A stretch of DNA of 64,000 nt from an uncultured Candidatus Saccharibacteria bacterium (GTDB lineage Bacteria > Patescibacteriota > Minisyncoccia > Phycocordibacterales > PALSA-1337), in NCBI GenBank assembly GCA_964406895.1, contig CAYOTK010000004.1:26016-90015 (forward strand), given 5' to 3'. The notes under the pieces are model-generated. The model was not told the origin of the DNA, did not search any database, and was given only the letters and a program-made list of their open reading frames with translations. Shown here piece after piece: positions 7,006 to 62,417 of this stretch. A program made the translations under genes and the position numbers. Every line of letters starts with the position of its first letter. The first letter of the stretch is position 1.

Positions 7006-8715
7006 ATGAAAAATATCCGCCGAGTAGTGGTTTGCGGACCCCCGCATTCGGGAAAGTCTGTGTTCCTAGCCAATCTCCAACGGCTATTGCCGGTTGAGCA
7101 TCACATGCTCATTTTCGGCGCTCCCGACGGTGAGTGGCATTGGAGCAACGAGGCCAACCAGAGCCTCGTCAAAAACCTGCGGGAAAAGAAAGGCTTCTCG
7201 CAGGACTGGTGCCGTCAAATCGTAACAGCGATCCAGAGTGCCGATCAGAAATTGGTACTCGTGGATACGGGTGGCAAGCGATTGCCACCGAACGATGAGA
7301 TCTTCTCGTCGTGCGATGGTTTCATCATTATTTCCTCATCGCCGGAGGAAATGATTGAGTGGCGGAAGTTCGGCGAGAGTTTCGGATGCCAGTGCTTGGC
7401 CGAGCTTGACTCGGTTTTGCATGGAACGTCAGAGCTCTATCCAGACCGCAAGGACGGCATCATCCGCGGTCAGATATGCGGTCTCGAGCGCGGGAAGACC
7501 ATTGAGTCGCCTGTGATGGACGCGGTGGCCAGTCGGCTTTGCGAAGTCATCAAAGCTAACGCTGAAATGACCAAGGCCGAACTTCTCGCCAACATCAATG
7601 GCGTGAAGTTGGTAGACCATCTGGGAATCACAGATCGCTCGGATCCGTATCTCGGAGTGAGGCCCTGGCACACGGCTCCTGCACTCAAACTCACGGCCGT
7701 GGCGCGCCGACTGGAAATCGTGCGAATCTGGAATGTCCGCACAAGTTTCCTGTCCTGCGCCTTCGCCTCGATGCTCCCAGGAAAAGTCCAGCTCTTCGGC
7801 GTGTCCGAGGGGTATGTGGAATTACCTGAAGTCGTTCCGGCTGGGAACGCTTCCGGCGATGGGGTGGAATGGGAAGTTACCGAACTGGCCGAGTATACCT
7901 TAGTGGAATTCCGCAAAACACGATTCTTCACTAAGGAACTGCTGGCGAGCGTGGTACCGCCCGTAGTCAATTCTCGCAAGGGGGTTGTGCTGTCTACGGA
8001 CGGTCCGCCCATCTGGCTAGACGCGACGATCGCAAGGTCGTATGCAAAAGCTGGCGCACCATGGATTGCTGTCTTCGTTCCGGTTGAGTCCGGACGAGTC
8101 CAGCCGTCTTTGGACGGCCAGAAATGGAGTGATGTGCACCCACCAGACGGACCGTGCGTGATAATTTACGGTCCGGAAAATCGGCTGGGAGAAATCATTC
8201 CCGTGCCGATTGCCCTGCTTAAATGGCAAGGGGGTGGACGTAAGTGGCGACTCGGGTCGGGCGAGCCAGTCGTGGATCGACAGAACAGCCACCTTGCCAC
8301 GCACGGCACGGTTTTGCCGTTCGTGGGTGAAGCCTTGCTCCAGATTCAATCCGGAGGACAAGACTTCATCGCCGAAGAAGTAGGTTTTGGCGAAGCCATC
8401 GGGCAGACGATTTGTGTCGCCACCCGCGAGGATGACGACATCGTTTTCGCCCAGCGGCCAAACCGAGCCGGACTCACACGGTTCGTGAAAGGTCGCGAGC
8501 CGGAGTCGTGCTCGACGGTTGTGGTTTGTCTAAAGCGAGCGCGGGAGGGCGGATACATCCTCCTTACTGCGTACATTGGTAGACGCACACCGGCCGAACC
8601 GTGGGACATGGAATGGGCAACGGATCAGTCCGTGCCTTTCTGGAATTCCCATGCTCTGATTTGGGGGCACGAATCAACAATACCAGGAACTGAAACGAAG
8701 GTTTGTTCTTGGTGA
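7006..8715 (+). CDS. P-loop GTPase-like protein, paralog B
   Basis: G1 is VVVCGPPHSGKS and G3-like is LVLVDTGGK. The N-terminal domain and a C-terminal block (GPPIWLDATIARSYAKAGAPWIAVFVPVESGRVQ...GQKWSDVH) are paralogous to ORF 1..1236. An additional ~170-aa C-terminal extension is present. Confidence 0.65.
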   Translation: MKNIRRVVVCGPPHSGKSVFLANLQRLLPVEHHMLIFGAPDGEWHWSNEANQSLVKNLREKKGFSQDWCRQIVTAIQSADQKLVLVDTGGKRLPPNDEIFSSCDGFIIISSSPEEMIEWRKFGESFGCQCLAELDSVLHGTSELYPDRKDGIIRGQICGLERGKTIESPVMDAVASRLCEVIKANAEMTKAELLANINGVKLVDHLGITDRSDPYLGVRPWHTAPALKLTAVARRLEIVRIWNVRTSFLSCAFASMLPGKVQLFGVSEGYVELPEVVPAGNASGDGVEWEVTELAEYTLVEFRKTRFFTKELLASVVPPVVNSRKGVVLSTDGPPIWLDATIARSYAKAGAPWIAVFVPVESGRVQPSLDGQKWSDVHPPDGPCVIIYGPENRLGEIIPVPIALLKWQGGGRKWRLGSGEPVVDRQNSHLATHGTVLPFVGEALLQIQSGGQDFIAEEVGFGEAIGQTICVATREDDDIVFAQRPNRAGLTRFVKGREPESCSTVVVCLKRAREGGYILLTAYIGRRTPAEPWDMEWATDQSVPFWNSHALIWGHESTIPGTETKVCSW

Positions 8716-12763: not shown

Positions 12764-13001
12764 GGATTTCAACAAAAGGCATTATAGCCTATAATTTCAA
12801 AATTTGAAAGTTTTTACAAAACACTCTTGCTTCGCCAAAGGCTTCGCAAGACGAGTGCGTTTTTATAACTGTCCTACTACGCTCCTCACTCCGTTCGGAG
12901 CTTCGTAGGACTGCTTCGCGAAAGTGTATTATTGAGAATGCAATTAAACAAGTACTTGTACTGCGAAGCGACCCCAGCGATTAGCTGGGGTCGCGAAGCA
13001 G

Positions 13002-13075
13002 TACGCCCGGCAGGACTCGAACCTGCAACCCCTTGGTTCGAAGCCAAGTACTCTATCCAATTGAGCTACGGGCGC
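13002..13075 (-). tRNA. tRNA-Arg (anticodon UCG)
   Basis: The reverse complement reads GCGCCCGUAGCUCAAUUGGAUAGAGUACUUGGCUUCGAACCAAGGGGUUGCAGGUUCGAGUCCUGCCGGGCGUA. Anticodon loop is CUUCGAA, T-arm is GCAGG-UUCGAGU-CCUGC, with a G1-U72 wobble. CCA is not encoded. Confidence 0.7.
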
Positions 13076-17966: not shown

Positions 17967-18134
17967 AAACAAAGCAGGTACAGCATGTACATACTAGTCG
18001 TTGCGAAAACTCACTCCTTAAATTTCTAAGAAAAAGCCTCACGAGGTCATCACGGTTCGGCTTTTTCTAAGAAATTTATAGTCGTTCAAACAGTTCGCAA
18101 CGACTAGTATGTACATGCTGTACCTGCTTTGTTT
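17967..18134. repeat. Palindromic element copy 1: perfect 41-bp inverted repeats flanking an 86-bp conserved core
   Basis: aaacaaagcaggtacagcatgtacatactagtcgttgcgaa at 17967-18007 is the exact reverse complement of 18094-18134. The core at 18008-18093 has its own internal inverted repeat (aaatttctaagaaaaagcc / ggctttttctaagaaattt) and is shared with 20813-20898 and, in reverse orientation, 62079-62167. Confidence 0.7.
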
Positions 18135-18261
18135 TCATCGAACACCACACCCTGCACATGAATTTTTGTGAGCAATCCAAATGAGGTGGTTACGCATGAC
18201 TATTGCATACGCACTTGTTTGCTCACAAAAATTCATGTGCAGGGTGTGGCGTGAAGAAAAA

Positions 18262-20203: not shown

Positions 20204-20722
20204 ATGTCAGTCATAAAACACAAAGAACAGCGTGTTGGTATATTCATCGACGCTCAAAACCTATATCACAGCGGAAAGAATCTATATCATTCAAAGGTAA
20301 ATTTTGGTTCTATAGTCAAAGACGCTCTAGACGGCAGGAAACTAGTCCGTGCCGTGGCCTACGTTATTGCCACAGAATCTGGCGAAGAAAATAATTTCTT
20401 CGACGCCCTGACAAAAATGGGTATAGAAACCAAGGTCAAAGATTTACAAATATTCAGTTCTGGAGCCAAAAAAGCTGACTGGGACGTTGGTCTAGCTATT
20501 GATGCGGTGAAATTATCGCCAAAACTTGATGCTGTTATTCTTATTACCGGCGACGGAGACTTCGTGCCCCTTGTCGAGTATTTGCAGATGAATCAAGGTT
20601 GTCAGGTAGAAGTTGCCTCATTCGGCAAGTCAACCTCAGCTAAATTGATAGAATCAGCGGATCATTTCATGGATTTGGATGAAAACGCAGGTAAATATCT
20701 ATTGAGAGTAGGGAGGAAATAA
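20204..20722 (+). CDS. NYN/LabA-like (DUF88) domain protein
   Basis: VGIFIDAQNLYHS ... AVILITGDGDFVPLVEYLQ is the PIN-like NYN pattern (hhhD..N......GDGDF..L). 172 aa. Confidence 0.6.
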   Translation: MSVIKHKEQRVGIFIDAQNLYHSGKNLYHSKVNFGSIVKDALDGRKLVRAVAYVIATESGEENNFFDALTKMGIETKVKDLQIFSSGAKKADWDVGLAIDAVKLSPKLDAVILITGDGDFVPLVEYLQMNQGCQVEVASFGKSTSAKLIESADHFMDLDENAGKYLLRVGRK

Positions 20723-20774
20723 TATTTAAGCCCGCGTGAATTTATAAATCACCATTTTTAGTGTTGGGTGAATG

Positions 20775-20936
20775 TTTTTCAGCAGTACATGTGTGCTTTT
20801 GTTCGTTGCGAAAACTCACTCCTTAAATTTCTAAGAAAAAGCTTTACGAGGTCATCACGGTTCGGCTTTTTATAAGAAATTTATAGTCGTTCAAACAGTT
20901 CGCAACGAACAAAAGCACACATGTACTGCTGAAAAA
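20775..20936. repeat. Palindromic element copy 2: perfect 38-bp inverted repeats around the same 86-bp core
   Basis: tttttcagcagtacatgtgtgcttttgttcgttgcgaa at 20775-20812 is the exact reverse complement of 20899-20936. The core at 20813-20898 is ~95% identical to 18008-18093. The arm sequences differ from copy 1 but are again perfectly self-complementary. Confidence 0.7.
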
Positions 20937-21153
20937 CTCGTACCTTAGTAAGAAAGAATTTGATTCTCTGGAAAAAAATAAACTATCAATTTCTCCAGAA
21001 TCGTGTTAAATTACAAACATTAATATTAATAATTCGCCTGCAGATAGGCAGGTTTATCCTCCACAGCTTTTCCACATAAAAGCAAAAGAGGGAATCTGAA
21101 ATCTGAAGGCGAATAAGGTCGGACCTCTAAAAGGTCGGACCTCAAAGAAAAAA

Positions 21154-23289
21154 ATGAATAAAAAAGAATATACATTAGAATTGGGTGGCAAAACATTGAC
21201 CGCCGAATTCAACGATCTCGCAGACCAGACAAATGGTGCTGTGATGGTTAGATATGGAAATACCGTAATGCTTGCCACAGCAGTTATGGGAGATTATAAA
21301 GAAGGGGACTTTTTCCCACTTACAGTTGATTATGAGGAAAGGTTTTATGCAACAGGCAAAATTCTCGGTTCAAGATTCGTACGCAGAGAAGGAAGACCTT
21401 CTGAAGAAGCGATACTTTCTGGAAGAATAGTAGATAGAACGATCAGACCACTATTCAATCAAAAAATGAGAAATGAGGTTCAGGTTGTGCTAACAACAAT
21501 TGCCATCGATCAGGACGATCCTGATGTAGTGTCAGTCATTGCGGCTTCATTGGCACTCGGTGTATCAGATATACCTTGGAATGGACCAGTATCAGCTGTT
21601 CGTATAGGAAAGAATGGTGATTGGCTTATCAATCCAGACTTCAAGACAAGAGAAGATGAAAAAATAACCATCGACATGGTTGCTTGCGGAAAAGATGGAA
21701 TGATAAACATGATAGAAGTAGCAGGAAAAGAGGTCGATGAAAATACAGTCAATCAGGCTCTTAGTACAGCTTCTCTAGAAATCGAAAAAATACAAGCTTG
21801 GCAGAAGAAAATAATCGCTGAAATAGGCAAGCAAAAAACTGAAGTTAAGATAGAACAACCAACAGAGGGAACGAAAGAATTGTTTGATTCAGAAATATCA
21901 CCAATATTAGGTAAATTTGTTTTCAGTGGACCTGGGAAAAAGAAGCTTGCAGAGATAAATGAAAAGTGGATAAAACTTTTCACAGAGAAAATGCCTGAAG
22001 GAAATGTCGGCCAAGCACAAGAAGTGTTCGAAGAAGCTGTAAACGATCTACTACACAGCGAGGCGATCGATAATGATAAAAGACCTGACGGCAGAACAAT
22101 GGATGAAATCCGTCCACTTTTTGCAAAAGCAGGGGGTATTTCGTCAATACTGCACGGTACGGGAATATTCTTCCGCGGAGGCACACATGTTATGTCAGCA
22201 TTAACACTTGGATCACCTGGAGACGCTCTGGTTGTCGATGGGCTTATGGTTCAAGAAAACAAACGTTTCATGCATCACTATAACTTCCCACCATTTTCAA
22301 CAGGTGAGACAGGAAGGATGGGTGGAACAAACAGAAGAATGATTGGTCATGGAGCGCTTGCAGAAAAAGCCTTAGCGCCCATAATTCCTGCAAAAGAAAA
22401 ATTCCCTTATACAATTCGATTGGTATCAGAAGCTTTTGCTTCGAACGGTTCTACTTCTATGGGTTCAGTCTGCGCATCAACATTGGCACTTATGGACGGT
22501 GGAGTACCGATCAAAGCACCAGTTGCAGGAATTGCTTCTGGACTAATGATGCGAAATCAAAACGAATACAAAGTTCTTACAGATATTCAAGGTCCTGAAG
22601 ATCATCACGGGGACATGGATTTCAAGGTCGCCGGAACAAGAGAAGGAATAACAGCAGTACAAATGGATGTGAAAGTTGGGGGTATACCATTAAAAATCTT
22701 GACGGAAGCTTTCGTTAAGGCAAAAAATGCCCGCCTTCAAATTCTGGACCTAATCGAAAAGGAGATTTCACAACCTCGACAGACAATATCAGCCAATGCA
22801 CCTGAAATCATAATACTCAAGATAAAGCCTGATCAAATAGGTCTAGTTATTGGTACAGGAGGAAAAACTATAAACGAAATCAGGGACGTTACACACGTAG
22901 AAGACATAACCATTGAAGATGATGGAAGTGTTTTCATAACAGGAAAAGGGGGCACTGCAGAAAAAGCAAAAGAAATCATATATAACATGACCAGAGAATA
23001 TCTTCCTGGAGAAAAATTCGATGGGGAAGTTGTAAGAATGATGGACTTCGGTGCATTCGTGAAAATTGGCCCCAACGCAGAAGGACTAGTCCATGTATCT
23101 GAAATAGCTCCTTTCAGAGTTGAGAGAGTCGAAACTTACATCAAAGAAGGTGACAAAGTTCCTGTTGTGGTAAAAGAAATAGATGAAAAGGGAAGAATCA
23201 ATCTTTCTATTAAACAAGCGGATCCAAATTTCTTCACCAAGCGCGAGGAAACACCGAAGCCAAGACCAGCATTCAACAAGAGGCATTAG
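21154..23289 (+). CDS. pnp: Polyribonucleotide nucleotidyltransferase (PNPase)
   Basis: 711 aa with two RNase PH-like domains, KH (IGLVIGTGGKTINEI) and S1 (GEKFDGEVVRMMDFGAFVKI) domains. Typical N-terminus MNKKEYTLELGGKTL. Confidence 0.9.
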   Translation: MNKKEYTLELGGKTLTAEFNDLADQTNGAVMVRYGNTVMLATAVMGDYKEGDFFPLTVDYEERFYATGKILGSRFVRREGRPSEEAILSGRIVDRTIRPLFNQKMRNEVQVVLTTIAIDQDDPDVVSVIAASLALGVSDIPWNGPVSAVRIGKNGDWLINPDFKTREDEKITIDMVACGKDGMINMIEVAGKEVDENTVNQALSTASLEIEKIQAWQKKIIAEIGKQKTEVKIEQPTEGTKELFDSEISPILGKFVFSGPGKKKLAEINEKWIKLFTEKMPEGNVGQAQEVFEEAVNDLLHSEAIDNDKRPDGRTMDEIRPLFAKAGGISSILHGTGIFFRGGTHVMSALTLGSPGDALVVDGLMVQENKRFMHHYNFPPFSTGETGRMGGTNRRMIGHGALAEKALAPIIPAKEKFPYTIRLVSEAFASNGSTSMGSVCASTLALMDGGVPIKAPVAGIASGLMMRNQNEYKVLTDIQGPEDHHGDMDFKVAGTREGITAVQMDVKVGGIPLKILTEAFVKAKNARLQILDLIEKEISQPRQTISANAPEIIILKIKPDQIGLVIGTGGKTINEIRDVTHVEDITIEDDGSVFITGKGGTAEKAKEIIYNMTREYLPGEKFDGEVVRMMDFGAFVKIGPNAEGLVHVSEIAPFRVERVETYIKEGDKVPVVVKEIDEKGRINLSIKQADPNFFTKREETPKPRPAFNKRH

Positions 23290-48686: not shown

Positions 48687-51233
48687 TTACTGACTTTTGA
48701 AATTAATCGACGCCAGGCCTTTGTTATACGCTTGGTCGTAGACTGTGATGGACAAAGTGTTTTCTGTGTCTAGATCGGTCAAATCTGAAGGAATAAAGGA
48801 TATATTCAACGGGTCAGTGGTTGAAGTTAATATGTATTTATTATTTATATAAACTTCTGTTTTGATAATACTTCTACCATCCGCAATTTTTATCTGTAGA
48901 TTCAAAAGTTTTTGAGGATCAATAACTGTTCCGGAAACAGGGGAAAATATACTAACAACAGGACCTTTCCCCGCGAGGTGAACATCGTCTGTTTGGGTCG
49001 GTATTGTGAAAGATGTAGCTTCTTTGAATTCAGGATGTAATTTTTGCCAATTGTCGAACCATTGTCTAACGCCATACTCCCAATATTCATATTGTGAATC
49101 ATTTTTTGGATCTGCTGGCGCTGGACCACGAGGATCGTCTTTGTTTAACCATTGTAATATCGTATGAACACCATTTGATATTACGTCCTTCTGGGTTTCG
49201 ATCGGTGTTAGATCCGTTGCAACCTTTCCGGAAATTTTGTCGACTCGATAATACTGTCCACCAGACCAAACACCTCTAAGCACAGGTTTGCCGTCTAATA
49301 GTGGTTCTGGTGGGCTTTTGAAATTCTCAACAGGCAAAGATTTCACCGCTTGAGACATGAAGGCGCCCCAAAGAGGAGATATTATTAGTCCGGCGACATT
49401 GTGTTGCATGGGAACATTGTCACTATTTCCCGCCCAAGCCCCTACTACCAGGTTAGGTGTATATCCTATTGTCCAAACGTCACGGTAGTCATTTGTAGTA
49501 CCTGTTTTTATCGCTACTTGTCTTCCGACTCCATCCGCTATTGGTTTCAAGCTGTTCATTCTGACGGAGTTATCAGATAGTATGCTTGATATTTGTCTTG
49601 CTATTTCTGGTTGCAAGGCTTGGAAAGGAGAAACGGTTGCTTCCTCAATAACATTTCCCTTAGTGTCTTCTATTCTTAAGACTTCTCTTACAGGATTCCT
49701 CACGCCATCATTTGCGAAAACTCCATATGCGCTGGTTATATCGAGAAGTCGGACTTCACCACCACCTAGCACTAGTGTAAGGCCGTATCGATTTGGATCA
49801 GTTAAGGTTGTTATACCCATATCTCTTGCTGTGTTGATCGCATTTGCTATGCCGGCCAAGTAAAGTGTTTTGACTGCTGGTATGTTTCTCGATTGGGCAA
49901 GAGCTTTCCTCATAGGCATTGGGCCATCGAATATTTCATCATATTCATTTGGTGAATAACAAACTTTGGTGGGATCGTCGTTTGGATTCTTAGGTTTTCC
50001 TTCCACCGTACATTTGGTCGAGAATTCCGTTCTGACATCGAAAAGCATTGTTTCTGGCGTATAACCTTTCTTGAAAGCTGTTGCATATACGAATGGTTTG
50101 AATGTTGAGCCTGGTTGTCTCAAGGCAAGAGCCACATTGTAATTTCCAGCTATTGATGCGTCGAAATAATCTTTTGAACCAACCATTGCTAATATGTCTC
50201 CAGTTTTTGGATCTATAGCTACCATGGCCGTGTTGCTAGCGTTGAAGTTTGATGCGAGGGTGGGGGAGAATTTCTTGATTACCGACTCTGCTTTTTGTTG
50301 CATATCATAATCTAGCGTCGTTATTACTCTCAATCCTCCTGACGACACTCTCTCCTCGCCATATTTTTGTGTTAAATAGTCTTTGACCATCATGACGAAA
50401 TGTGGAGCCCTGATGCTGCCGTCATTTTTTGCAAGAAACTGTACTTTTTCCGCTGAGGCTTTCTTGAATTCGGCATCAGTTATGAAGCCCACAGATTTCA
50501 TTCTTTGTAATACAAGTTTTTGTCTGGCATCAAGTTCTGCCTTATGTGTACCGTAGGGCGAGAATCTTGACGGTGCTTGTGGTATTGCAGCCAAATATGC
50601 TGCTTCCGCCAATGTCACGTCCATCGATGTTTTCCCGAAGAATGACCTGCTGGCTTCTTCGACTCCATATATCGTGCCACCATACGATGTTTCATTCAGG
50701 TATGTTTCTAAGATTTTATTCTTAGGCATGATTTTTGTGAGTTTGATAGCCAAAACCCATTCTTTGATCTTTCTTGTTATGGTTTTGTCTTGAGTTAGAA
50801 GAGTGTTCTTAACGACCTGTTGGGTTATGGTTGATGCTCCTTGTCCATATCCGCCCGAAACAAGGTTCGCAATCACAGCCCTTATGATAGATGTCGGTTC
50901 TATACCAATGTTGTTATAGAAATTGGCATCCTCAATAGCTACTGTGGCTTTTTGTATATATGTTGAAACGTCGTCTATAGAAACATCGGTTCTTCGGACA
51001 TTGACACCAGAATCATAAAGCAGGATTTTCCCGGTCTTGTCATAGAATTTTGTGGACTCGATTATTTGCCTAGAATTGAACGAGGCCAGATCTGGCATTC
51101 TGAGCGTGGCTACCCACAAAGAAGCTGCTCCTGCCAGAATAAGGACGGCTGAAATGAACAGCAGAACTAACGATCTCAAGTGGTGGGTCGCCTTGCGACG
51201 CCTGTGTTTCATATGAGGGATATTATACAACAA
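48687..51233 (-). CDS. Bifunctional penicillin-binding protein 1A (transglycosylase/transpeptidase)
   Basis: GT51 motifs (EDANFYNNIGIE, GASTITQQ, RKIKE). Transpeptidase motifs SxxK (GSTFKP), SxN and KTG (KTGTTND). C-terminal extension. 848 aa. Confidence 0.85.
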   Translation of the reverse strand: MLYNIPHMKHRRRKATHHLRSLVLLFISAVLILAGAASLWVATLRMPDLASFNSRQIIESTKFYDKTGKILLYDSGVNVRRTDVSIDDVSTYIQKATVAIEDANFYNNIGIEPTSIIRAVIANLVSGGYGQGASTITQQVVKNTLLTQDKTITRKIKEWVLAIKLTKIMPKNKILETYLNETSYGGTIYGVEEASRSFFGKTSMDVTLAEAAYLAAIPQAPSRFSPYGTHKAELDARQKLVLQRMKSVGFITDAEFKKASAEKVQFLAKNDGSIRAPHFVMMVKDYLTQKYGEERVSSGGLRVITTLDYDMQQKAESVIKKFSPTLASNFNASNTAMVAIDPKTGDILAMVGSKDYFDASIAGNYNVALALRQPGSTFKPFVYATAFKKGYTPETMLFDVRTEFSTKCTVEGKPKNPNDDPTKVCYSPNEYDEIFDGPMPMRKALAQSRNIPAVKTLYLAGIANAINTARDMGITTLTDPNRYGLTLVLGGGEVRLLDITSAYGVFANDGVRNPVREVLRIEDTKGNVIEEATVSPFQALQPEIARQISSILSDNSVRMNSLKPIADGVGRQVAIKTGTTNDYRDVWTIGYTPNLVVGAWAGNSDNVPMQHNVAGLIISPLWGAFMSQAVKSLPVENFKSPPEPLLDGKPVLRGVWSGGQYYRVDKISGKVATDLTPIETQKDVISNGVHTILQWLNKDDPRGPAPADPKNDSQYEYWEYGVRQWFDNWQKLHPEFKEATSFTIPTQTDDVHLAGKGPVVSIFSPVSGTVIDPQKLLNLQIKIADGRSIIKTEVYINNKYILTSTTDPLNISFIPSDLTDLDTENTLSITVYDQAYNKGLASINFKSQ

Positions 51234-56755: not shown

Positions 56756-56899
56756 AATATCACATTCATTTGACAATCACGCAATTATTATTGTAGTCTG
56801 ATTTCAGACCACCCCTGATTGCACCTGACCCTGTTTCTTGGCCCTGCAAATGAGAGGGTAAGAGAAATATGGACGGCACCATGACGGCGTGGAAGACAT

Positions 56900-57307
56900 A
56901 TGAATAGAAACGATCAATTCGGCCCCATCTTTGCCTTGGCGGCCCGGTTCGCCTCCGAAATCGCTGGCATGAATCTGCCCACTGAGGTAATTCAGAAAGC
57001 GAAAGAGCAAAAGAATCACCCTCTCTGGACGGCGGTAAACAGAGCGTTGTCGCCGGATGGTAACCCCAATCCGATCAGCGATGAGACCTCCCTGGTCCTG
57101 TCGAGACGCTTCACTCTTTTCATCGATTTTTTGGGATTGCCTGAAGAGGTGGCCGTGGCTGCGACAAAAAATGATCACCCGCTCTGGGGCGCCGTGAGAA
57201 AGGCGCTGTTGCCCGAAGAGATGTCGATGTCACCGGGTCTTGCCCTTAAGGAAAAGGGTGGAGACAAAAAGGTCGGGCGCTTCATTGTTTTGGATAATTT
57301 GTGGTGA
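56900..57307 (+). CDS. Hypothetical protein with internal tandem repeat (GC-rich ORF)
   Basis: 135 aa. Internal duplication KNHPLWTAVNRALSPD / KNDHPLWGAVRKALLPEE. It lies in a ~600-bp ~52% GC patch within AT-rich DNA. Confidence 0.35.
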   Translation: MNRNDQFGPIFALAARFASEIAGMNLPTEVIQKAKEQKNHPLWTAVNRALSPDGNPNPISDETSLVLSRRFTLFIDFLGLPEEVAVAATKNDHPLWGAVRKALLPEEMSMSPGLALKEKGGDKKVGRFIVLDNLW

Positions 57308-57380
57308 ACACGGGCAAAAGTGCACCTGTGAAGATCTGTCGTATCGGTCAGACCTTTTTGTTCTTTTGTCCTTTTTTCAT

Positions 57381-57418
57381 CCCTCCGCCTGTTTGCAGGC
57401 GGAGGGGTTTTCTTTTTG
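57381..57418 (+). terminator. Strong rho-independent terminator
   Basis: CCCUCCGCCUG-UUUG-CAGGCGGAGGG (11-bp GC-rich stem) followed by GUUUUCUUUUUG, immediately before the polA start. Confidence 0.65.
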
Positions 57419-57431
57419 CTACAATATACCC

Positions 57432-59885
57432 ATGCCCAAGCCTGAAAATAACAAGAAAAGACTCGTATTACTAGATGCGCACGCAATACTGCACCGTGCA
57501 TATCACGCTCTGCCCGATTTTCATACCAAGAAAGGCGAGCCAACGGGGGCATTATACGGCCTATCGGCAATGCTTATAAAGATAATAGAAGACTTGAAGC
57601 CAGACTATCTCGTGGCGTGTTACGACGTGCACGCGCCAACTATGAGGCATGAAATATACAAGGATTACAAGGCGGGTAGGAAAAAAGCCGAAGACGATTT
57701 GATATCGCAGATCAAGCGTTCAAGAGATGTTTTCGAAGCACTCAATGTTCCCATATATGAAAAGGCGGGTTACGAAGCGGATGACATTCTTGGGACAATC
57801 GTTTTAGAGGTCGGACTTCGAGGAGGTCGGACCTCTAAAAGGTCGGACCTCGAAATCATAATTGCTTCAGGAGATATGGATACGATGCAACTCATTTCTG
57901 GCGAAGATGTGAAAGTCTACACATTGAAAAAGGGGATTAAAGACACAATCATGTACGACGAGGAAGCTGTGAAAGAAAGATTTGGTTTTGGCCCGAAACT
58001 AATTCCTGACTACAAGGGTCTTTCTGGTGATCCGTCGGACAATATTGTGGGCGTGAAGGGTATAGGTGAGAAGACAGCGACGACACTCATCACAACTTTC
58101 GGCACCGTAGAAAAAATTTACCAAGAATTAGAAGCTGGTCACGAGAAGTCTTTCGAAAAGGCCGGAATAAAACCGCGAATCATTCAACTTTTGAAGGATA
58201 ATAAGGAAGAGGCAGAGTTCAGTAAAATGTTAGCGACTATAAGAACGGACGCGCCGATTGATTTCAAATTACCGGAAAAAACATTCAAGGAAACGCTCGA
58301 CGTCAAAAAAGCAAAATCATTCTGGACAGAGCTTGAATTCAGGACTTTGGGACAGAGATTGGAGCAAGTTATTTCAGGCGATAATAAAATCGTTACAAAA
58401 GGCGAGAATGTGACCAAGGAAGAAGTAGTGCAAAATGAAGAGGGATTATTTGGTTCAGAACAAAACAAAAAGACGCTCGAGAATATTCCGGCCGAAAGAC
58501 TAGAGAAGGTGGCTTTGGCTCTGTGGGTCGTTGATTCCAATATAACTAACCCGACTCTGGAAGACATTTTGAATTTCTCCAATACAGACAGCTTTGAAAC
58601 TGCTGAGAAAGCTATTTTCGATGAGCTAGAAAAGAGAGGCTTGAAGAAAGTCTATGAAGAAATAGAGTTGCCACTTATACCGATCATCAAAAAGATGGAA
58701 ACTCGCGGCGTGAAGATAGATCGTGCCACTCTCAAGGATCTTGCCACAAAATATCACACTGAAGCTGAGCGGTTGGAGAAGGAAATATGGCAGTTGGCAG
58801 GTGTAGAATTTAATATAAGTTCACCGAAACAGTTGGGAGAAGTTTTGTTCGACAAGCTTCAGCTCACCGCCAAGAATATGAAGAAAACTAGTGGTGGTGC
58901 TCGTTCAACCCGAGAATCAGAGCTGGAGAAATTGAGAGATCTTCACCCAATAGTTCCTCTCATATTCAGTCATCGCGAGCTTAGCAAACTCCTTTCGACT
59001 TACATAGACGCTATACCACCACTTCTTGATTGGAATGATCGTCTGCATACACATTTCATATCAACAGGCGCAACTACAGGCAGAATGGCGTCACAGAATC
59101 CAAATCTTCAGAATATTCCTATAAAAACAGAACTCGGTCGTGCCATAAGAAAAGCTTTTGTTGCAGAAAAAGATTTTGTTTTGGCTAGCTTCGATTATTC
59201 TCAAGTAGAATTGCGCATCGCCGCTTTTCTTTCTCACGATGAGAAGCTTATAGAGATTTTCAGGAAAGGGGAAGACGTGCATACTTCTGTGGCCTCATCG
59301 GTTTTCAAGGTTCCGTTTAATGAAGTTAGTGCAGAAATGCGCAGACGAGCTAAGGTTATAAATTTCGGCATCATATATGGCATGGGTGTTTTGGCCTTGA
59401 AGGACAATCTAGGCACGAGTAGAGATGAAGCGCAGAAATTCATGAATGATTATTTTGAAACATTTTCGACTTTGGCTAATTATCTCGACAAAATAAAAGT
59501 TGAGACCAATAAGAAAGGTTATACAGAAACTTTTTTCGGGCGTCGCAGGTATTTCGAGGGTATAAAGTCTAAAATTCCATATATTAGGGCACAGGCCGAG
59601 AGAATGGCTATCAATGCTCCTATTCAAGGAACGGGTGCAGATATCGTGAAAATTTCAATGAAAAATATCGATCGTTTCATTCAGGAAAAAGGTCTTGAAG
59701 GTTCTGTTTTTCCACTTCTCCAGGTTCACGATGAATTGATATATGAAATTCGTGCAGACGTTGCCGATAAGGTCTCGGCACAAATCAGAGAAATAATGGA
59801 GAAAGTGATTGATCCAAAAGAAATAGAGGGCATAATTTTGAAATCCAGTTGCTCACTCGGCAAGAATTGGGGGGAATTGAAGTGA
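57432..59885 (+). CDS. polA: DNA polymerase I
   Basis: Start at MPKPENNKKRLVLLDAHA. 5'-nuclease motifs (LLDAHAILHRAYHA, GYEADD). Polymerase motif A (ASFDYSQVELRI), motif B (RRRAKVINFGIIYG) and motif C (LQVHDELI). 817 aa. Contains an in-frame GC-rich tandem repeat at 57811-57856. Confidence 0.9.
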   Translation: MPKPENNKKRLVLLDAHAILHRAYHALPDFHTKKGEPTGALYGLSAMLIKIIEDLKPDYLVACYDVHAPTMRHEIYKDYKAGRKKAEDDLISQIKRSRDVFEALNVPIYEKAGYEADDILGTIVLEVGLRGGRTSKRSDLEIIIASGDMDTMQLISGEDVKVYTLKKGIKDTIMYDEEAVKERFGFGPKLIPDYKGLSGDPSDNIVGVKGIGEKTATTLITTFGTVEKIYQELEAGHEKSFEKAGIKPRIIQLLKDNKEEAEFSKMLATIRTDAPIDFKLPEKTFKETLDVKKAKSFWTELEFRTLGQRLEQVISGDNKIVTKGENVTKEEVVQNEEGLFGSEQNKKTLENIPAERLEKVALALWVVDSNITNPTLEDILNFSNTDSFETAEKAIFDELEKRGLKKVYEEIELPLIPIIKKMETRGVKIDRATLKDLATKYHTEAERLEKEIWQLAGVEFNISSPKQLGEVLFDKLQLTAKNMKKTSGGARSTRESELEKLRDLHPIVPLIFSHRELSKLLSTYIDAIPPLLDWNDRLHTHFISTGATTGRMASQNPNLQNIPIKTELGRAIRKAFVAEKDFVLASFDYSQVELRIAAFLSHDEKLIEIFRKGEDVHTSVASSVFKVPFNEVSAEMRRRAKVINFGIIYGMGVLALKDNLGTSRDEAQKFMNDYFETFSTLANYLDKIKVETNKKGYTETFFGRRRYFEGIKSKIPYIRAQAERMAINAPIQGTGADIVKISMKNIDRFIQEKGLEGSVFPLLQVHDELIYEIRADVADKVSAQIREIMEKVIDPKEIEGIILKSSCSLGKNWGELK

Positions 59886-59902: not shown

Positions 59903-60631
59903 ATGCTATACGTAATTCATGGCCCAGATAAAAAAATAGCCACAGATAAAGCTCTTTCTTTGGTGCATTCTCTGCAAAGCAAAAAGCCAGATGCAACACT
60001 GGTAAAAATCGATGGTGATAATTGGAATTCTGCGATCATTCAGGAAAATTTCGGTGGTCAGGGACTTTTCTCGAACAAATATATAGTTTTTTTGAATCGT
60101 GTTTGCGAGAACGCTTCCGCAAAAGAAAAGATTCTGGATTTCGTTTCTGCCATGAAAGAATCAACAAATATTTTTATTATTCTCGAAGGAACCTTGAATG
60201 CAGAGCTGAAAAAATCATTCGAAAAATCCGCAGAGAAAATGGTTTTGTGCGAAGAAAAGACCGCCGTCAAAAAGGGTTTTGGTGATTTCAATATTTTTGC
60301 GCTTGGTGACGCACTAGGAGAAAAGAAATTCATGAATGCATGGGTACTATATAGGAAGGCCTTGGAGAAGGGTTTGGAAGTAGAAAGTATATTGGGCACC
60401 ATATTCTGGCAGATGAAATCTATATTACTCGCTTCTCGCTCAAGTTCCGCGTCCGAGGCAGGTCTCAGCCCCTTTGTTTTCAATAATTGCAAAAGGTTTG
60501 CGAAAAATTATTGTACCGAGGAATTAGAAAACACTTTGAGAAAATTAATTACTATTTATCACGATGGTCATAGGGGATTGGTCGATATGGAGGTTGAGGT
60601 GGAGGGGTGGGTGGTGAGGGGGTTAGATTAG
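59903..60631 (+). CDS. holA: DNA polymerase III delta subunit-like (HolA) protein
   Basis: Start taken at MLYVIHGPDKK (the delta N-terminus typically reads vyllyGee). Length 243 aa, consistent with a reduced delta. Confidence 0.45.
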   Translation: MLYVIHGPDKKIATDKALSLVHSLQSKKPDATLVKIDGDNWNSAIIQENFGGQGLFSNKYIVFLNRVCENASAKEKILDFVSAMKESTNIFIILEGTLNAELKKSFEKSAEKMVLCEEKTAVKKGFGDFNIFALGDALGEKKFMNAWVLYRKALEKGLEVESILGTIFWQMKSILLASRSSSASEAGLSPFVFNNCKRFAKNYCTEELENTLRKLITIYHDGHRGLVDMEVEVEGWVVRGLD

Positions 60632-60862
60632 TCTTTTTCTTGTAAAAGCAAAACCAGAACCTTGTTTCAGGTATTTTTCAAAAGAAAGACTTTTAACTTT
60701 ATTTTCAAAACAACAATACCAAATAATTTTGACTGGTCTTCTGTTTGATGTGCTTTGAACTGAACCTTTATTGTGATAGTTAATACGGTTTTTTAAATTG
60801 TTGGATGAGCCAACATAATATGAATTATCAGAACATTTAAGAATGTAAACATAATAAGGCAT
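60623..60862 (-). CDS. GIY-YIG nuclease-domain protein (YhbQ/UPF0213-like)
   Basis: MPYYVYILKCSDNSYYVGSSNNLKNRINYHNKG...RRPVKIIWY carries the GIY-YIG motifs. The longer track ORF (to 60994) runs into the repeat region and is not supported. Confidence 0.65.
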   Translation of the reverse strand: MPYYVYILKCSDNSYYVGSSNNLKNRINYHNKGSVQSTSNRRPVKIIWYCCFENKVKSLSFEKYLKQGSGFAFTRKRLI

Positions 60863-61024
60863 GAATAAAATTATAGCAGAATAGTGTCTTACTACGCTCG
60901 CTACGCGAGCTTCGTAGGACTGCTTTCCTGCTCCGCCAAAGGCTACGCAGGACAAGCGCGTTTTATGCATTATTGTGCCTGCACTGCGAAGCAACCCCAG
61001 CGATTAGCTGGGGTTGCGAGGCAG

Positions 61025-61098
61025 TGCGCCCAGTTGGATTCGAACCAACGACCCACTCCTTAAAAGGGAGTTGCTCTACCAGGCTGAGCTATGGGCGC
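61025..61098 (-). tRNA. tRNA-Lys (anticodon UUU)
   Basis: The reverse complement reads GCGCCCAUAGCUCAGCCUGGUAGAGCAACUCCCUUUUAAGGAGUGGGUCGUUGGUUCGAAUCCAACUGGGCGCA. Anticodon stem is ACUCC/GGAGU with loop CUUUUAA. CCA is not encoded. Confidence 0.8.
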
Positions 61099-62078: not shown

Positions 62079-62167
62079 TGCAGAGCAACTGTTTGAGCGA
62101 GTATAAATTTCTTGGAAAAAGCCGAACCGTGATGACCTCGTGAGGCTTTTTCCTAGAAATTTAACGA
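62079..62167. repeat. Palindromic element core, copy 3 (reverse orientation, without perfect outer arms)
   Basis: ctgtttgagcgagtataaatttcttggaaaaagccgaaccgtgatgacctcgtgaggctttttcctagaaatttaacgagcgagtt is ~85% identical to the reverse complement of 18008-18093. Confidence 0.6.
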
Positions 62168-62417
62168 GCGAGTTTTGTCGAGGACGATAATACATCATGC
62201 CTAGGGTTTCTTTTAATAAAGCTCCCGCCGGTTTTGGCCGGCGGGGTGAGGGTTCTTTCAAGACCTCCATGGACGCACTGGTCTCGATGCCCTTTTTTTC
62301 GCTCGTCTGATTTGAACTAGAAGCGCTTTAAGGGCTTTGAACTCTACTTTGATTCGTATGGGCATCAAATCCTCCTTGTTGAATTTATAACATCTTACAT
62401 CAAAAACAAAAAAACAC

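Follow-up and report, generated by a model that had tools for sequence, protein, structure and literature searches.

A 13-base GC-rich palindrome, repeated with a 16-base period, just upstream of pnp and in frame within polA

GC-rich palindromes can colonise AT-rich compact genomes, as is the case for the GC clusters of yeast mitochondria. The SDRs of Nostoc are said to be 21-27 nt long, to look mobile and to share a hairpin, and reportedly have no transposase of their own. Coding palindromes of Nematomorpha are organellar and lie in coding sequence without breaking the frame (PMC6649704). In bacteria, hairpin-forming REP doublets have been put forward as the unit of replication (PMC3116915), and intragenic REPs are concentrated in genes of replication and repair, including uvrA, dnaE, recB and ligase (PMC3733652). 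The CGTC class of REPs has no dedicated transposase and is spread over several phyla, where it includes RPE-4 and RPE-6 of Rickettsia and dRS3 of Neisseria; it is defined by a CGTC or TGTC tag, a stem of 8-9 bp starting with A/T, a loop of 4-5 nt and a CCA tail (PMC3733652). RPEs insert in frame into Rickettsia genes where the protein fold allows it, and decayed copies are present in related species (PMC10969869). The genomes of Patescibacteria are very small and streamlined, and selfish repeated DNA has hardly been described in them. A literature search with the sequence of the repeat reported here returned primers and unrelated matches only, and a search of the literature on CPR taxa for REP or palindromic repeats found nothing relevant, and no REP family of Patescibacteria or Omnitrophota. 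The REP/RPE-like family of small hairpin repeats that we find in many ultra-small bacterial genomes is, apparently, undescribed.

We analysed a 64-kb stretch of DNA (the window), which has a GC content of ~37-38% apart from its first 9 kb. A 13-base GC-rich palindrome, GAGGTCGGACCTC, is repeated with a 16-base period at two places in it, just 5' of pnp and in frame in polA. The core, GAGGTC-G-GACCTC, is a 6-1-6 quasi-palindrome, and the repeat unit is 16 nt long. The two genes and their arrays are:

pnp, 21154..23289, + strand: polynucleotide phosphorylase (PNPase), 711 aa, with PF01138, PF00013 and PF00575
pnp array, 21116..21147, + strand: two units, AGGTCGGACCTCTAAA (21116-21131) and AGGTCGGACCTCAAAG (21132-21147)
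polA, 57432..59885, + strand: DNA polymerase I (PolI), 817 aa, start most likely at 57432 (MPKPENNKK)
polA unit 1, 57808..57823, + strand: AGGTCGGACTTCGAGG, degenerate (ACTTC), read together with the G ahead of it as E126 V G L R G
polA unit 2, 57824..57839, + strand: AGGTCGGACCTCTAAA, read in the second frame as G R T S K
polA unit 3, 57840..57855, + strand: AGGTCGGACCTCGAAA, read in the third frame as R S D L E

The array upstream of pnp reads gaataAGGTCGGACCTCTAAAAGGTCGGACCTCaaagaaaaaaATG and that of polA reads ttagAGGTCGGACTTCGAGGAGGTCGGACCTCTAAAAGGTCGGACCTCGAAAtc. Direct reading of both sites shows that the 28-mer AGGTCGGACCTCTAAAAGGTCGGACCTC is identical at 21116-21143 and 57824-57851, 36.7 kb apart. 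The original prediction had recognised this identity, but placed the two copies at 21119-21146 and 57829-57856, which is 3-5 nt too high. Its description of two units before pnp and three in-frame units in polA was confirmed by direct reading; the degenerate third unit that it saw ahead of the 28-mer in polA is indeed present at 57808-57823, and the peptide EVGLRGGRTSKRSDLEI that it assigned to the 5'-nuclease domain corresponds to E126-I142 of the PolI starting at 57432.

The 11-mer GGTCGGACCTC is found exactly at 21117, 21133, 57825 and 57841 and, with one mismatch, at 57809. Six matches to it with no more than one mismatch were found in the window (one of them a reverse-strand overlap) against 0.32 expected, a count that was matched by none of 100 dinucleotide shuffles. 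Similarly, the 16-mer unit with up to three mismatches gave five matches in the 64-kb window against 0.25 expected, and a repeat finder placed the pnp and polA copies in one family. No further convincing copy was found within the 64 kb besides the pnp and polA arrays, and the core was not found elsewhere in ~150 kb of relatives' sequence. A candidate third copy, GAAGTCGGACTTC at 49745, lies in a PBP1A-type gene, where it encodes GGGEVRLLD, and is most likely due to chance.

The core is free of stop codons in all six frames (EVGP, RSDL and GRTS on one strand; EVRP, RSDL and GPTS on the other). Since the three 16-nt units of polA add up to 48 nt, the reading frame is restored after the array, and, as each of the three units is read in a frame of its own, the repetition exists on the level of DNA and not of the peptide. 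The spacer of polA unit 3 is GAAA and not TAAA, which would create an in-frame stop after CTC. An imperfect inverted repeat, GTTTTAGAGGTC ... GACCTCGAAATC, encloses the whole polA array. Direct repeats were not seen on the flanks of either window array, and the element is essentially one palindrome.

We scanned other genomes, one per species, for two cores within 20 nt of each other and obtained at least 117 loci, the window itself not being among them. Tandem repeats in high-GC genomes and the GGGGTCGGACCTC-type repeats of Gammaproteobacteria were set aside from the family. Among the matches listed, 39 loci are of low GC content, where ~0.01 would be expected by chance (a rough estimate). These come from at least 24 genomes, 16 of them of Patescibacteria/Paceibacterota/Saccharibacteria, two of Omnitrophota and two of Flavobacteriales; the remaining low-GC carriers among the matches listed are one archaeon, three unclassified genomes and JALOBW01. 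The sharing of the core across phyla is the result of this one pattern scan, run without a control pattern. The loci of the family were selected for two exact 11-mers, a selection that does not bear on the flanking positions, the statistics of the centre or the additional single copies. A metagenome collection, evidently without the sister-strain contigs, gave three matches to the 16-nt-period pattern, and none to the 20-mer with the TAAA spacer.

Outside the search pattern, A stands at position -1 in 125 of 131 copies and G at position -2 in 106 of 131 (among the matches listed), so that the conserved positions complete the palindrome to GAGGTC-S-GACCTC. The centre of AGGT-N3-ACCT among the matches listed is CGG in 77 cases, CCG in 62, CAG in 11 and CTG in 7, with nearly nothing else. 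A palindromic extension of at least 3 nt is present in 32% of the copies among the matches listed, against 1.6% expected. Copies differ in their flanks beyond the 13-mer, even if they are from one genome, but the two flanks of a copy remain complementary, indicating hairpins that have the core at their apex and vary in their stems; inside single genomes, there are several sub-families in which the one core is surrounded by different stems. The commonest spacings of direct doublets are 16, 17 and 26 nt, and inverted doublets spaced by 14-15 nt (nine cases among the matches listed) form perfect long hairpins.

Residence inside genes is a property of the core family: by a crude gene call, 30 of 64 clusters among the matches listed lie within long ORFs. 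Ten of the ORF hosts were checked with Pfam, and the confirmed hosts include UvrA, UvrD/PcrA, GatA, a Mur ligase (MurC), a class-V aminotransferase and two surface proteins. DprA carries two copies within one gene, each outside the domains, an ADP-forming acetyl-CoA synthetase carries two clusters, and a pyruvate:ferredoxin oxidoreductase (PFOR) has two sites. As judged by alignment to solved structures, the repeat-encoded stretches in GatA and UvrA are variable linkers, with net gains of +1 and +5 residues, respectively. With an approximate query, phmmer found no match to an IS200/RAYT-like ORF among 6,061 ORFs (~1.3 Mb of loci in fragments of 2-22 kb, plus the window). A candidate composite transposon in one carrier (L092), formed by 7 kb between 109-nt inverted repeats with core doublets, encodes no transposase; the segment contains RodA, PBP2, MreBCD and AroA-like housekeeping genes. 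A phage origin was also rejected, as a scan of viral contigs gave one match only.

Within polA, the array falls into a variable part of the protein. PF02739 and PF01367 are found in the PolI homologues, and the nearest named relatives of both the PolI and the PNPase of the window are Candidatus Paceibacterota and Taylorbacteria, which places the host among the Patescibacteria (CPR) of the Paceibacteria type. In an AlphaFold2 model (50 homologues; mean pLDDT 81, below 50 at 131-136), the repeat-encoded residues 126-141 are predicted to form the end of a helix (116-127), a loop (128-139) and the start of a strand (140-146). The repeat segment can be aligned to the PolI of Taq and Mycobacterium, and the excess of 8 residues over these two proteins falls exactly there. 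Between G(F/Y)EADD and GDMD the homologues usually have 30-32 residues, and up to 68, and the window has 38. The loop is thus 6-8 residues longer than in most orthologs and equal in length to the repeat-free loop of an 87% ortholog (L121). A gain of only 6-8 residues implies that part of the native PolI loop was replaced or lost. The insertion in polA proposed in the original prediction was, therefore, seen in the alignment as extra residues, and not as a clean insertion of 16 residues. The codons GAC CTC GAA of unit 3 fall on the D-L-E that most orthologs have ahead of IIIASGDMD, and the reading frame of polA is intact.

Palindromes are also present in the corresponding PolI loop of more distant genomes. 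L134 (PolI 69% at the amino-acid level) has a perfect 17-nt variant palindrome, CCAAGGTCCGACCTTGG, encoding PRSDLG, and L135 has a decayed core, GAGGTCAGGCCTC. In two other Paceibacteria the loop contains a large in-frame GC-rich palindrome, which folds at -69 kcal/mol in L140 (59% GC in a locus of 41%) and at -76 kcal/mol in L139 (66% GC in a locus of 46%).

The state of both sites in relatives of the window is as follows:

polA array, L122-124 (Logan runs; PolI 98%): GAGGTCGGACCTCGAGGAGGTCGGACCTCTAAAAAGTCGGACCTC, with unit 1 intact and unit 3 mutated
polA array, L118-120 (ENA assemblies; PolI 90%): four units, heavily mutated, AEVGPRRDRASKRSNLETDLE
polA, L121 (PolI 87%): array absent; an unrelated AT-rich loop of equal length
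pnp array, L126-129 (JGI and Logan; PNPase ~100%): doublet present, spacer TAAGA
pnp array, L130/131 (PNPase 96%): decayed, AAGGTTAGACCTTTTACAGGCCGGACCTC
pnp, L132 (PNPase 84%): nothing comparable

The sister-strain contigs are Logan SRR23702505/460/459 for polA, and JGI 3300045347/50/56 plus Logan SRR23702459 for pnp. Unit 1 of polA in L122-L124 is the intact core GAGGTCGGACCTC, encoding EVGP. The repeat-free loop of L121 was rejected as a homologue of the array, as the two are ~35% identical when compared codon by codon (by hand), about the level of unrelated sequence. Among 120 homologues of polA, most do not have the array. As decayed versions are present in the lineage at 90% (PolA) and 96% (PNPase), both arrays predate that split and were inherited vertically thereafter. 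The closest polA orthologs share the array, which makes it an old inherited trait of a small clade and not a recent strain-specific insertion. The original prediction had named polA orthologs with the same peptide as evidence against an insertion; the 98% and 90% orthologs do have the peptide, in the same or a decayed form, and the distant ones lack it.

The arrays are not conserved for their sequence and diverge faster than their flanks. Between the window and the 90% lineage, the polA array is 61% identical when a 12-nt gap is included and ~75% ungapped, against 84.5% for the 300-nt flanks; between the window and the 96% lineage, the pnp array is 79% identical and its flanks are 89-90%. Eight of 12 substitutions in the polA array are from G/C to A/T, and both substitutions that separate it from the 98% strain are non-synonymous (L/P and R/K). 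In another distant genome, L133 (PNPase 80% at the amino-acid level), a perfect single core is present 12 nt before the pnp ATG. Given the fast decay in the clade of the window, the perfect copies in L133 and L134 are unlikely to be ancient relics, and suggest independent arrivals filtered by tolerance of the site. No pair of filled and empty alleles with clean junctions or target-site duplications was found among the compared loci. No mobility event was observed directly, and in the clade of the window both arrays are orthologous and inherited.

Taken together, we think it probable that the two arrays go back to a selfish palindromic mini-element, non-autonomous and with the core GAGGTC-S-GACCTC, of which they are old, inherited copies in slow decay. 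The mobile mini-insertion put forward in the original prediction is favoured by the dispersal of the core in many unrelated low-GC genomes, between genes as well as in frame inside ORFs, and by its absence from the more distant orthologs of polA and pnp, but not as a recent strain-specific or clean insertion; nothing was found in support of the recombination hotspot that it had also proposed.

A genome-specific version of the core with the TAAA spacer would have been copied to both the polA and pnp sites, and the arrays could then lengthen or shorten in 16-nt steps via slipped-strand or hairpin-mediated misalignment. Within genes, the survivors would be only those copies that keep the frame and lie in tolerant surface loops. 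In polA, the RSDL frame may recreate the native D-L ahead of EIIIASGDMD, and the spacer there is GAAA, where TAAA would give a stop. Before pnp, the doublet is predicted simply to place one more stable hairpin after the conserved leader stem and ahead of the A-rich start region, and its effect on expression would be modest at most. The element may spread by copy-over (short-patch conversion or microhomology-guided template switching) at least as much as by cut-and-paste insertion. PolI, GatA and UvrA have changed little in net length, which, together with the overlap with native codons, hints at copy-over.

Several observations count against parts of this reading. The net length change of just +6-8 aa in PolI, +1 in GatA and +5 in UvrA speaks against simple insertion. 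The low copy number, with two sites in 64 kb, counts against a selfish element, and the recurrence of the core directly before pnp in two distant lineages could mean function.

Alternatively, the palindrome could have arisen in place, by template switching on codons such as GAC CTC GAA, and have been amplified by slippage, the two sites having become alike through ectopic gene conversion or convergence. Such an origin would agree with the right end of the polA array coinciding with native D-L-E codons, with the imperfect inverted repeat that bounds this array, with the small net length changes, and with the 16-nt tandem structure, which is typical of slippage. It leaves unexplained, however, why the same 13-nt core with its conserved extra positions is found in at least 24 low-GC genomes of several phyla, why an identical TAAA spacer is present at two unrelated sites, and why sub-families of different stems surround one core in a single genome. 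We therefore consider an origin in place fairly unlikely, and as a mere local minisatellite it was rejected, given the 28-mer at two loci and the core in at least 24 other low-GC genomes.

The pnp copy might also be the functional one, acting as a cis-regulatory leader hairpin (PNPase/RNase III-type autoregulation, mRNA stabilisation or masking of the start), with the polA copy as a by-product. The pnp array ends 6 nt before the ATG, and its last core 10 nt before it. It is preceded by a further structure:

Long structured leader hairpin, 21032..21114, + strand: directly 5' of the pnp array; context only, not part of the element

The leader (21030-21175) is predicted to fold at -49.7 kcal/mol (z = -7.1), in the order leader hairpin, doublet hairpin, A-rich stretch, AUG. 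As RNA or single-stranded DNA, the doublet forms a single hairpin, which has 10 base pairs and a G.G mismatch (21116-21142; -16.1 kcal/mol, z = -4.7). A stable hairpin between a conserved structured leader hairpin and the AUG would agree with regulation, and a loop substitution in the sister strain strengthens it to -18.6 kcal/mol. Of the six L130 substitutions, four are at unpaired positions and one keeps a wobble pair, and the perfect core before the pnp ATG of the distant L133 would also fit. In the same 96% lineage (L130), however, the doublet hairpin reaches only -7.2 kcal/mol, the level of shuffled sequence, though the architecture of the adjoining leader stem is kept. Furthermore, the array is absent from the 84% lineage and diverges faster than the flanking intergenic DNA, and in many genomes the core is found in coding regions and beside unrelated genes. 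Rfam offers no match: at gathering score it identified only tRNAs in the whole window, and a permissive scan of 20700-21200 (E up to 10) gave nothing meaningful over 21116-21147. A regulatory role of the pnp hairpin is thus unlikely. A specific role in binding, as suggested in the original prediction, or in regulation finds no support, given arrays that decay faster than their flanks and a hairpin that is largely lost in the 96% lineage.

Two more familiar kinds of signal were also rejected for the pnp array. There is no T-run on the + strand that would make it an intrinsic terminator, and a terminator scan was empty there. Core copies that resemble terminators are present in other genomes (L065, L098 and L114). 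For a Shine-Dalgarno/anti-SD pair (GGAGGT...ACCTCC), G would be expected at -3, where it is present in just 38 of 131 copies; the core is ~20 nt from the pnp ATG, too distant for this role, and the centre TCSGA, which SD pairing does not need, is also conserved.

In Neisseria, the dRS3 repeats serve as recombination sites. By analogy with dRS3, one of the CGTC repeats (PMC3733652), the core could be kept as the putative site of a conserved DNA-binding protein, be it an operator, an uptake sequence or a recombinase site. A 6-1-6 inverted repeat has the typical shape of a site for a dimer, and the core is conserved across phyla. Yet many copies lie inside ORFs, the arrays decay quickly and a consistent neighbour gene was not seen, which makes such a site very unlikely. 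A DNA uptake sequence in particular was rejected, two sites in 64 kb being a density far below that of uptake sequences.

It is hardly credible that the polA segment is an adaptive insertion at the protein level, a basic loop that aids DNA binding by the 5'-nuclease. The peptide is basic and hydrophilic (RGGRTSKRS) and is located on the nuclease domain, but with three units in three frames there is no repeat in the peptide, both substitutions against the 98% strain change the protein, and the peptide is heavily altered in the 90% lineage; in addition, homologues differ extremely in the length and the sequence of this loop, for which the confidence of the model is low. Finally, although short GC-rich palindromes can provoke assembly errors, the chance that either copy is an artefact of assembly or sequencing, as the original prediction had allowed, is practically nil, since both arrays are found position-matched, with single-base differences, in contigs of independent samples and assemblers, decayed versions are present in ENA assemblies of a second lineage, and the frame of polA is intact.

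The selfish palindromic mini-element, the reading that we prefer, could be taken a step further. There is some chance, minor but real, that GAGGTC-S-GACCTC is the recognition core of an undescribed 'nano-element' of ~13-25 nt, which spreads horizontally by copy-over in Patescibacteria, Omnitrophota and some Bacteroidota. Copy-over or a dedicated enzyme would then overwrite tolerant linkers of essential genes instead of simply inserting into them, and variable complementary stems would be built round the constant apex. If this were true, the nano-element would be smaller than any characterised mobile DNA, and the loop of the polA 5'-nuclease would be a recurrent landing pad for palindromes in ultra-small genomes.

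A tiny palindromic element lives in essential genes, in PolI here and in UvrA, UvrD, DprA, GatA and MurC elsewhere, and a single surface loop of the PolI 5'-nuclease has repeatedly become the home of different palindromes. In practical terms, repeat segments of this kind give rise to peptides of low complexity and to spurious extensions at the N-terminus when MAGs are annotated, and they probably cause assemblies to break.

Among known systems, the core family resembles REP/REPIN sequences in several respects. It, too, consists of short GC-rich hairpin repeats, imperfect, multi-copy and mostly extragenic, the doublets of which fold into one hairpin that resembles the spreading unit. Like REPs, the copies are arranged as singletons, dimers and tandem clusters, mostly just 3' of genes, with some inside genes. 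In contrast to REPs, which are united by a basal tag, the core family conserves the apex of the hairpin, and the base of the stem varies. Indeed, the unpaired GTAG (GTRG) tag is absent from both flanks of the 131 copies (among the matches listed) and from the window copies; the flanks of the 131 copies show just GA at -2/-1, itself part of the palindrome. The core is, in addition, just 13 nt long, and its hosts are Patescibacteria and Omnitrophota.

With the CGTC class, the family shares its palindromic nature, its presence in several phyla with very similar sequence, its small AT-rich host genomes and its residence inside genes (PMC3733652). The core, GAGGTCSGACCTC, nevertheless has a different sequence, and lacks the terminal tag, the 8-9 bp stem starting with A/T, the loop of 4-5 nt and the CCA tail. 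One of the core carriers, JALOBW01 (L007), also has TGTC-ATTCCC...GGGAAT repeats of the CGTC type. Nostoc SDRs are reportedly often nested or embedded in tandem repeats, as the core arrays are; they are said to be confined to one cyanobacterial subgroup and to differ in sequence, and have not been described as common in frame within housekeeping genes.

As with RPEs, we are dealing with selfish palindromic DNA that lies in frame within essential genes and is decayed in relatives. RPEs, however, are ~100-150 bp long and encode a peptide conserved in one frame, whereas the units here measure 13-16 nt and the arrays 32-48 nt, any frame is used, and net length changes are small. By sequence, the core family thus belongs neither to the GTAG nor to the CGTC REPs, and by size it does not belong to the RPEs. 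The GC palindromes of organelles are alike in occupying AT-rich compact genomes and in keeping the frame, and differ in being organellar, in having other sequences and in being usually longer. A 13-nt core common to several phyla offers a handle on the spread of REP-like repeats that have no RAYT, such as those of the CGTC class.

An element of about 95-106 nt, built around a perfect internal hairpin of 19-20 bp (TAAATTTCTAAGAAAAAGCC / GGCTTTTTCTAAGAAATTTA), is present in the window in three copies:

17967-18134, hairpin element, copy 1
20775-20940, hairpin element, copy 2
62087-62176, minus strand, hairpin element, copy 3

Two copies are enclosed by perfect outer stems of 33-41 bp, which are not alike in sequence between the two copies, self-complementarity being kept in each; the third copy is without outer stems. 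For the copy adjoining pnp the folding energy is -80 kcal/mol (z = -15.5), and the arms of the element show compensatory changes between the window and the lineage with 96% PNPase identity. The search of Rfam returned no match for the element, only weak generic matches to plant miRNA-precursor hairpins. Possible identities for the element are a MITE and a structured RNA.

Copy 1 adjoins a second long inverted repeat (18142-18252; arms of 34 nt, 97% complementary), which lies between an Exo_endo_phos gene and a XerC/D-like integrase gene. In the corresponding region the sister-strain contig (L126) lacks about 200 nt relative to the window. L126 appears to be rearranged at this site, with part of the hairpin element reversed in orientation. 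The difference reflects either a true polymorphism or palindromes collapsed in assembly.

We also found in-frame palindromes in the polA loci of other Paceibacteria (L139 and L140). These are GC-rich, about 120-140 nt long, fold at -69 to -76 kcal/mol, and sit at exactly the same 5'-nuclease loop of PolI as the window repeat. Across 120 homologues the loop is between 30 and 68 residues long. It seems to serve palindromic DNA as a general landing pad. The interval between tsaE and polA (window 56756-57431) is variable between lineages as well: in the window and the sister strain it holds a GC-richer segment of ~650 nt, which includes an ORF of 135 aa without any match in Pfam, in the 90% lineage polA abuts tsaE directly, and in the 87% lineage a different ORF of 290 aa lies between the two genes. 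Within the window segment, just upstream of polA, the minor core variant, GGTCAGACC, is followed by a T-run.

Similarity was also detected between the flanks of two tRNA genes, one of which adjoins a nuclease gene:

13001-13075, tRNA-Arg
60623-60994, minus strand, small stand-alone GIY-YIG nuclease gene, adjoining tRNA-Lys
61024-61098, tRNA-Lys

The flanks of tRNA-Arg and tRNA-Lys have in common a 126-nt stretch of 75% similarity and carry an identical 19-mer, GAGCTTCGTAGGACTGCTT (12898-12916 and 60907-60925).

The start of the window (1-~9000) differs in GC content (55%, versus 37-38% across the rest of the genome) and encodes two Csx3-domain proteins, an HD-domain protein, a MoxR-type AAA ATPase and a VWA protein. 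This block looks like a defence-type island gained horizontally, or else like a chimera from binning or assembly.

Repeats were also seen in other core-bearing genomes. In the Omnitrophota locus L092 (JACRLT010000025.1), inverted repeats at 493-656 and 7562-7714, one of 109 nt with 95% complementarity and one of 45 nt with 100%, which include a core doublet, flank a 7-kb block of genes for cell shape and cell wall (RodA, PBP2, MreD, MreC, MreB) and AroA; perhaps this block can invert, or it may be an artefact of assembly. Several further families of GC-rich hairpin repeats crowd intergenic DNA in L007 1-900 (JALOBW010000003.1). Among them are TGTC-ATTCCC...GGGAAT units, which belong to the CGTC-REP type that Rickettsia and Neisseria are known to carry, and a composite element about 62 nt long, with one GAGGTCGGACCTC core at each end, which recurs five times in the JALOBW01 genome.

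The pnp leader itself contains a long conserved hairpin (21032-21114), which the 96% lineage retains and which has no Rfam match; folding of 21030-21175 gives -49.7 kcal/mol (z = -7.1). In E. coli, pnp carries an autoregulatory stem processed by RNase III, of which the leader hairpin is reminiscent.
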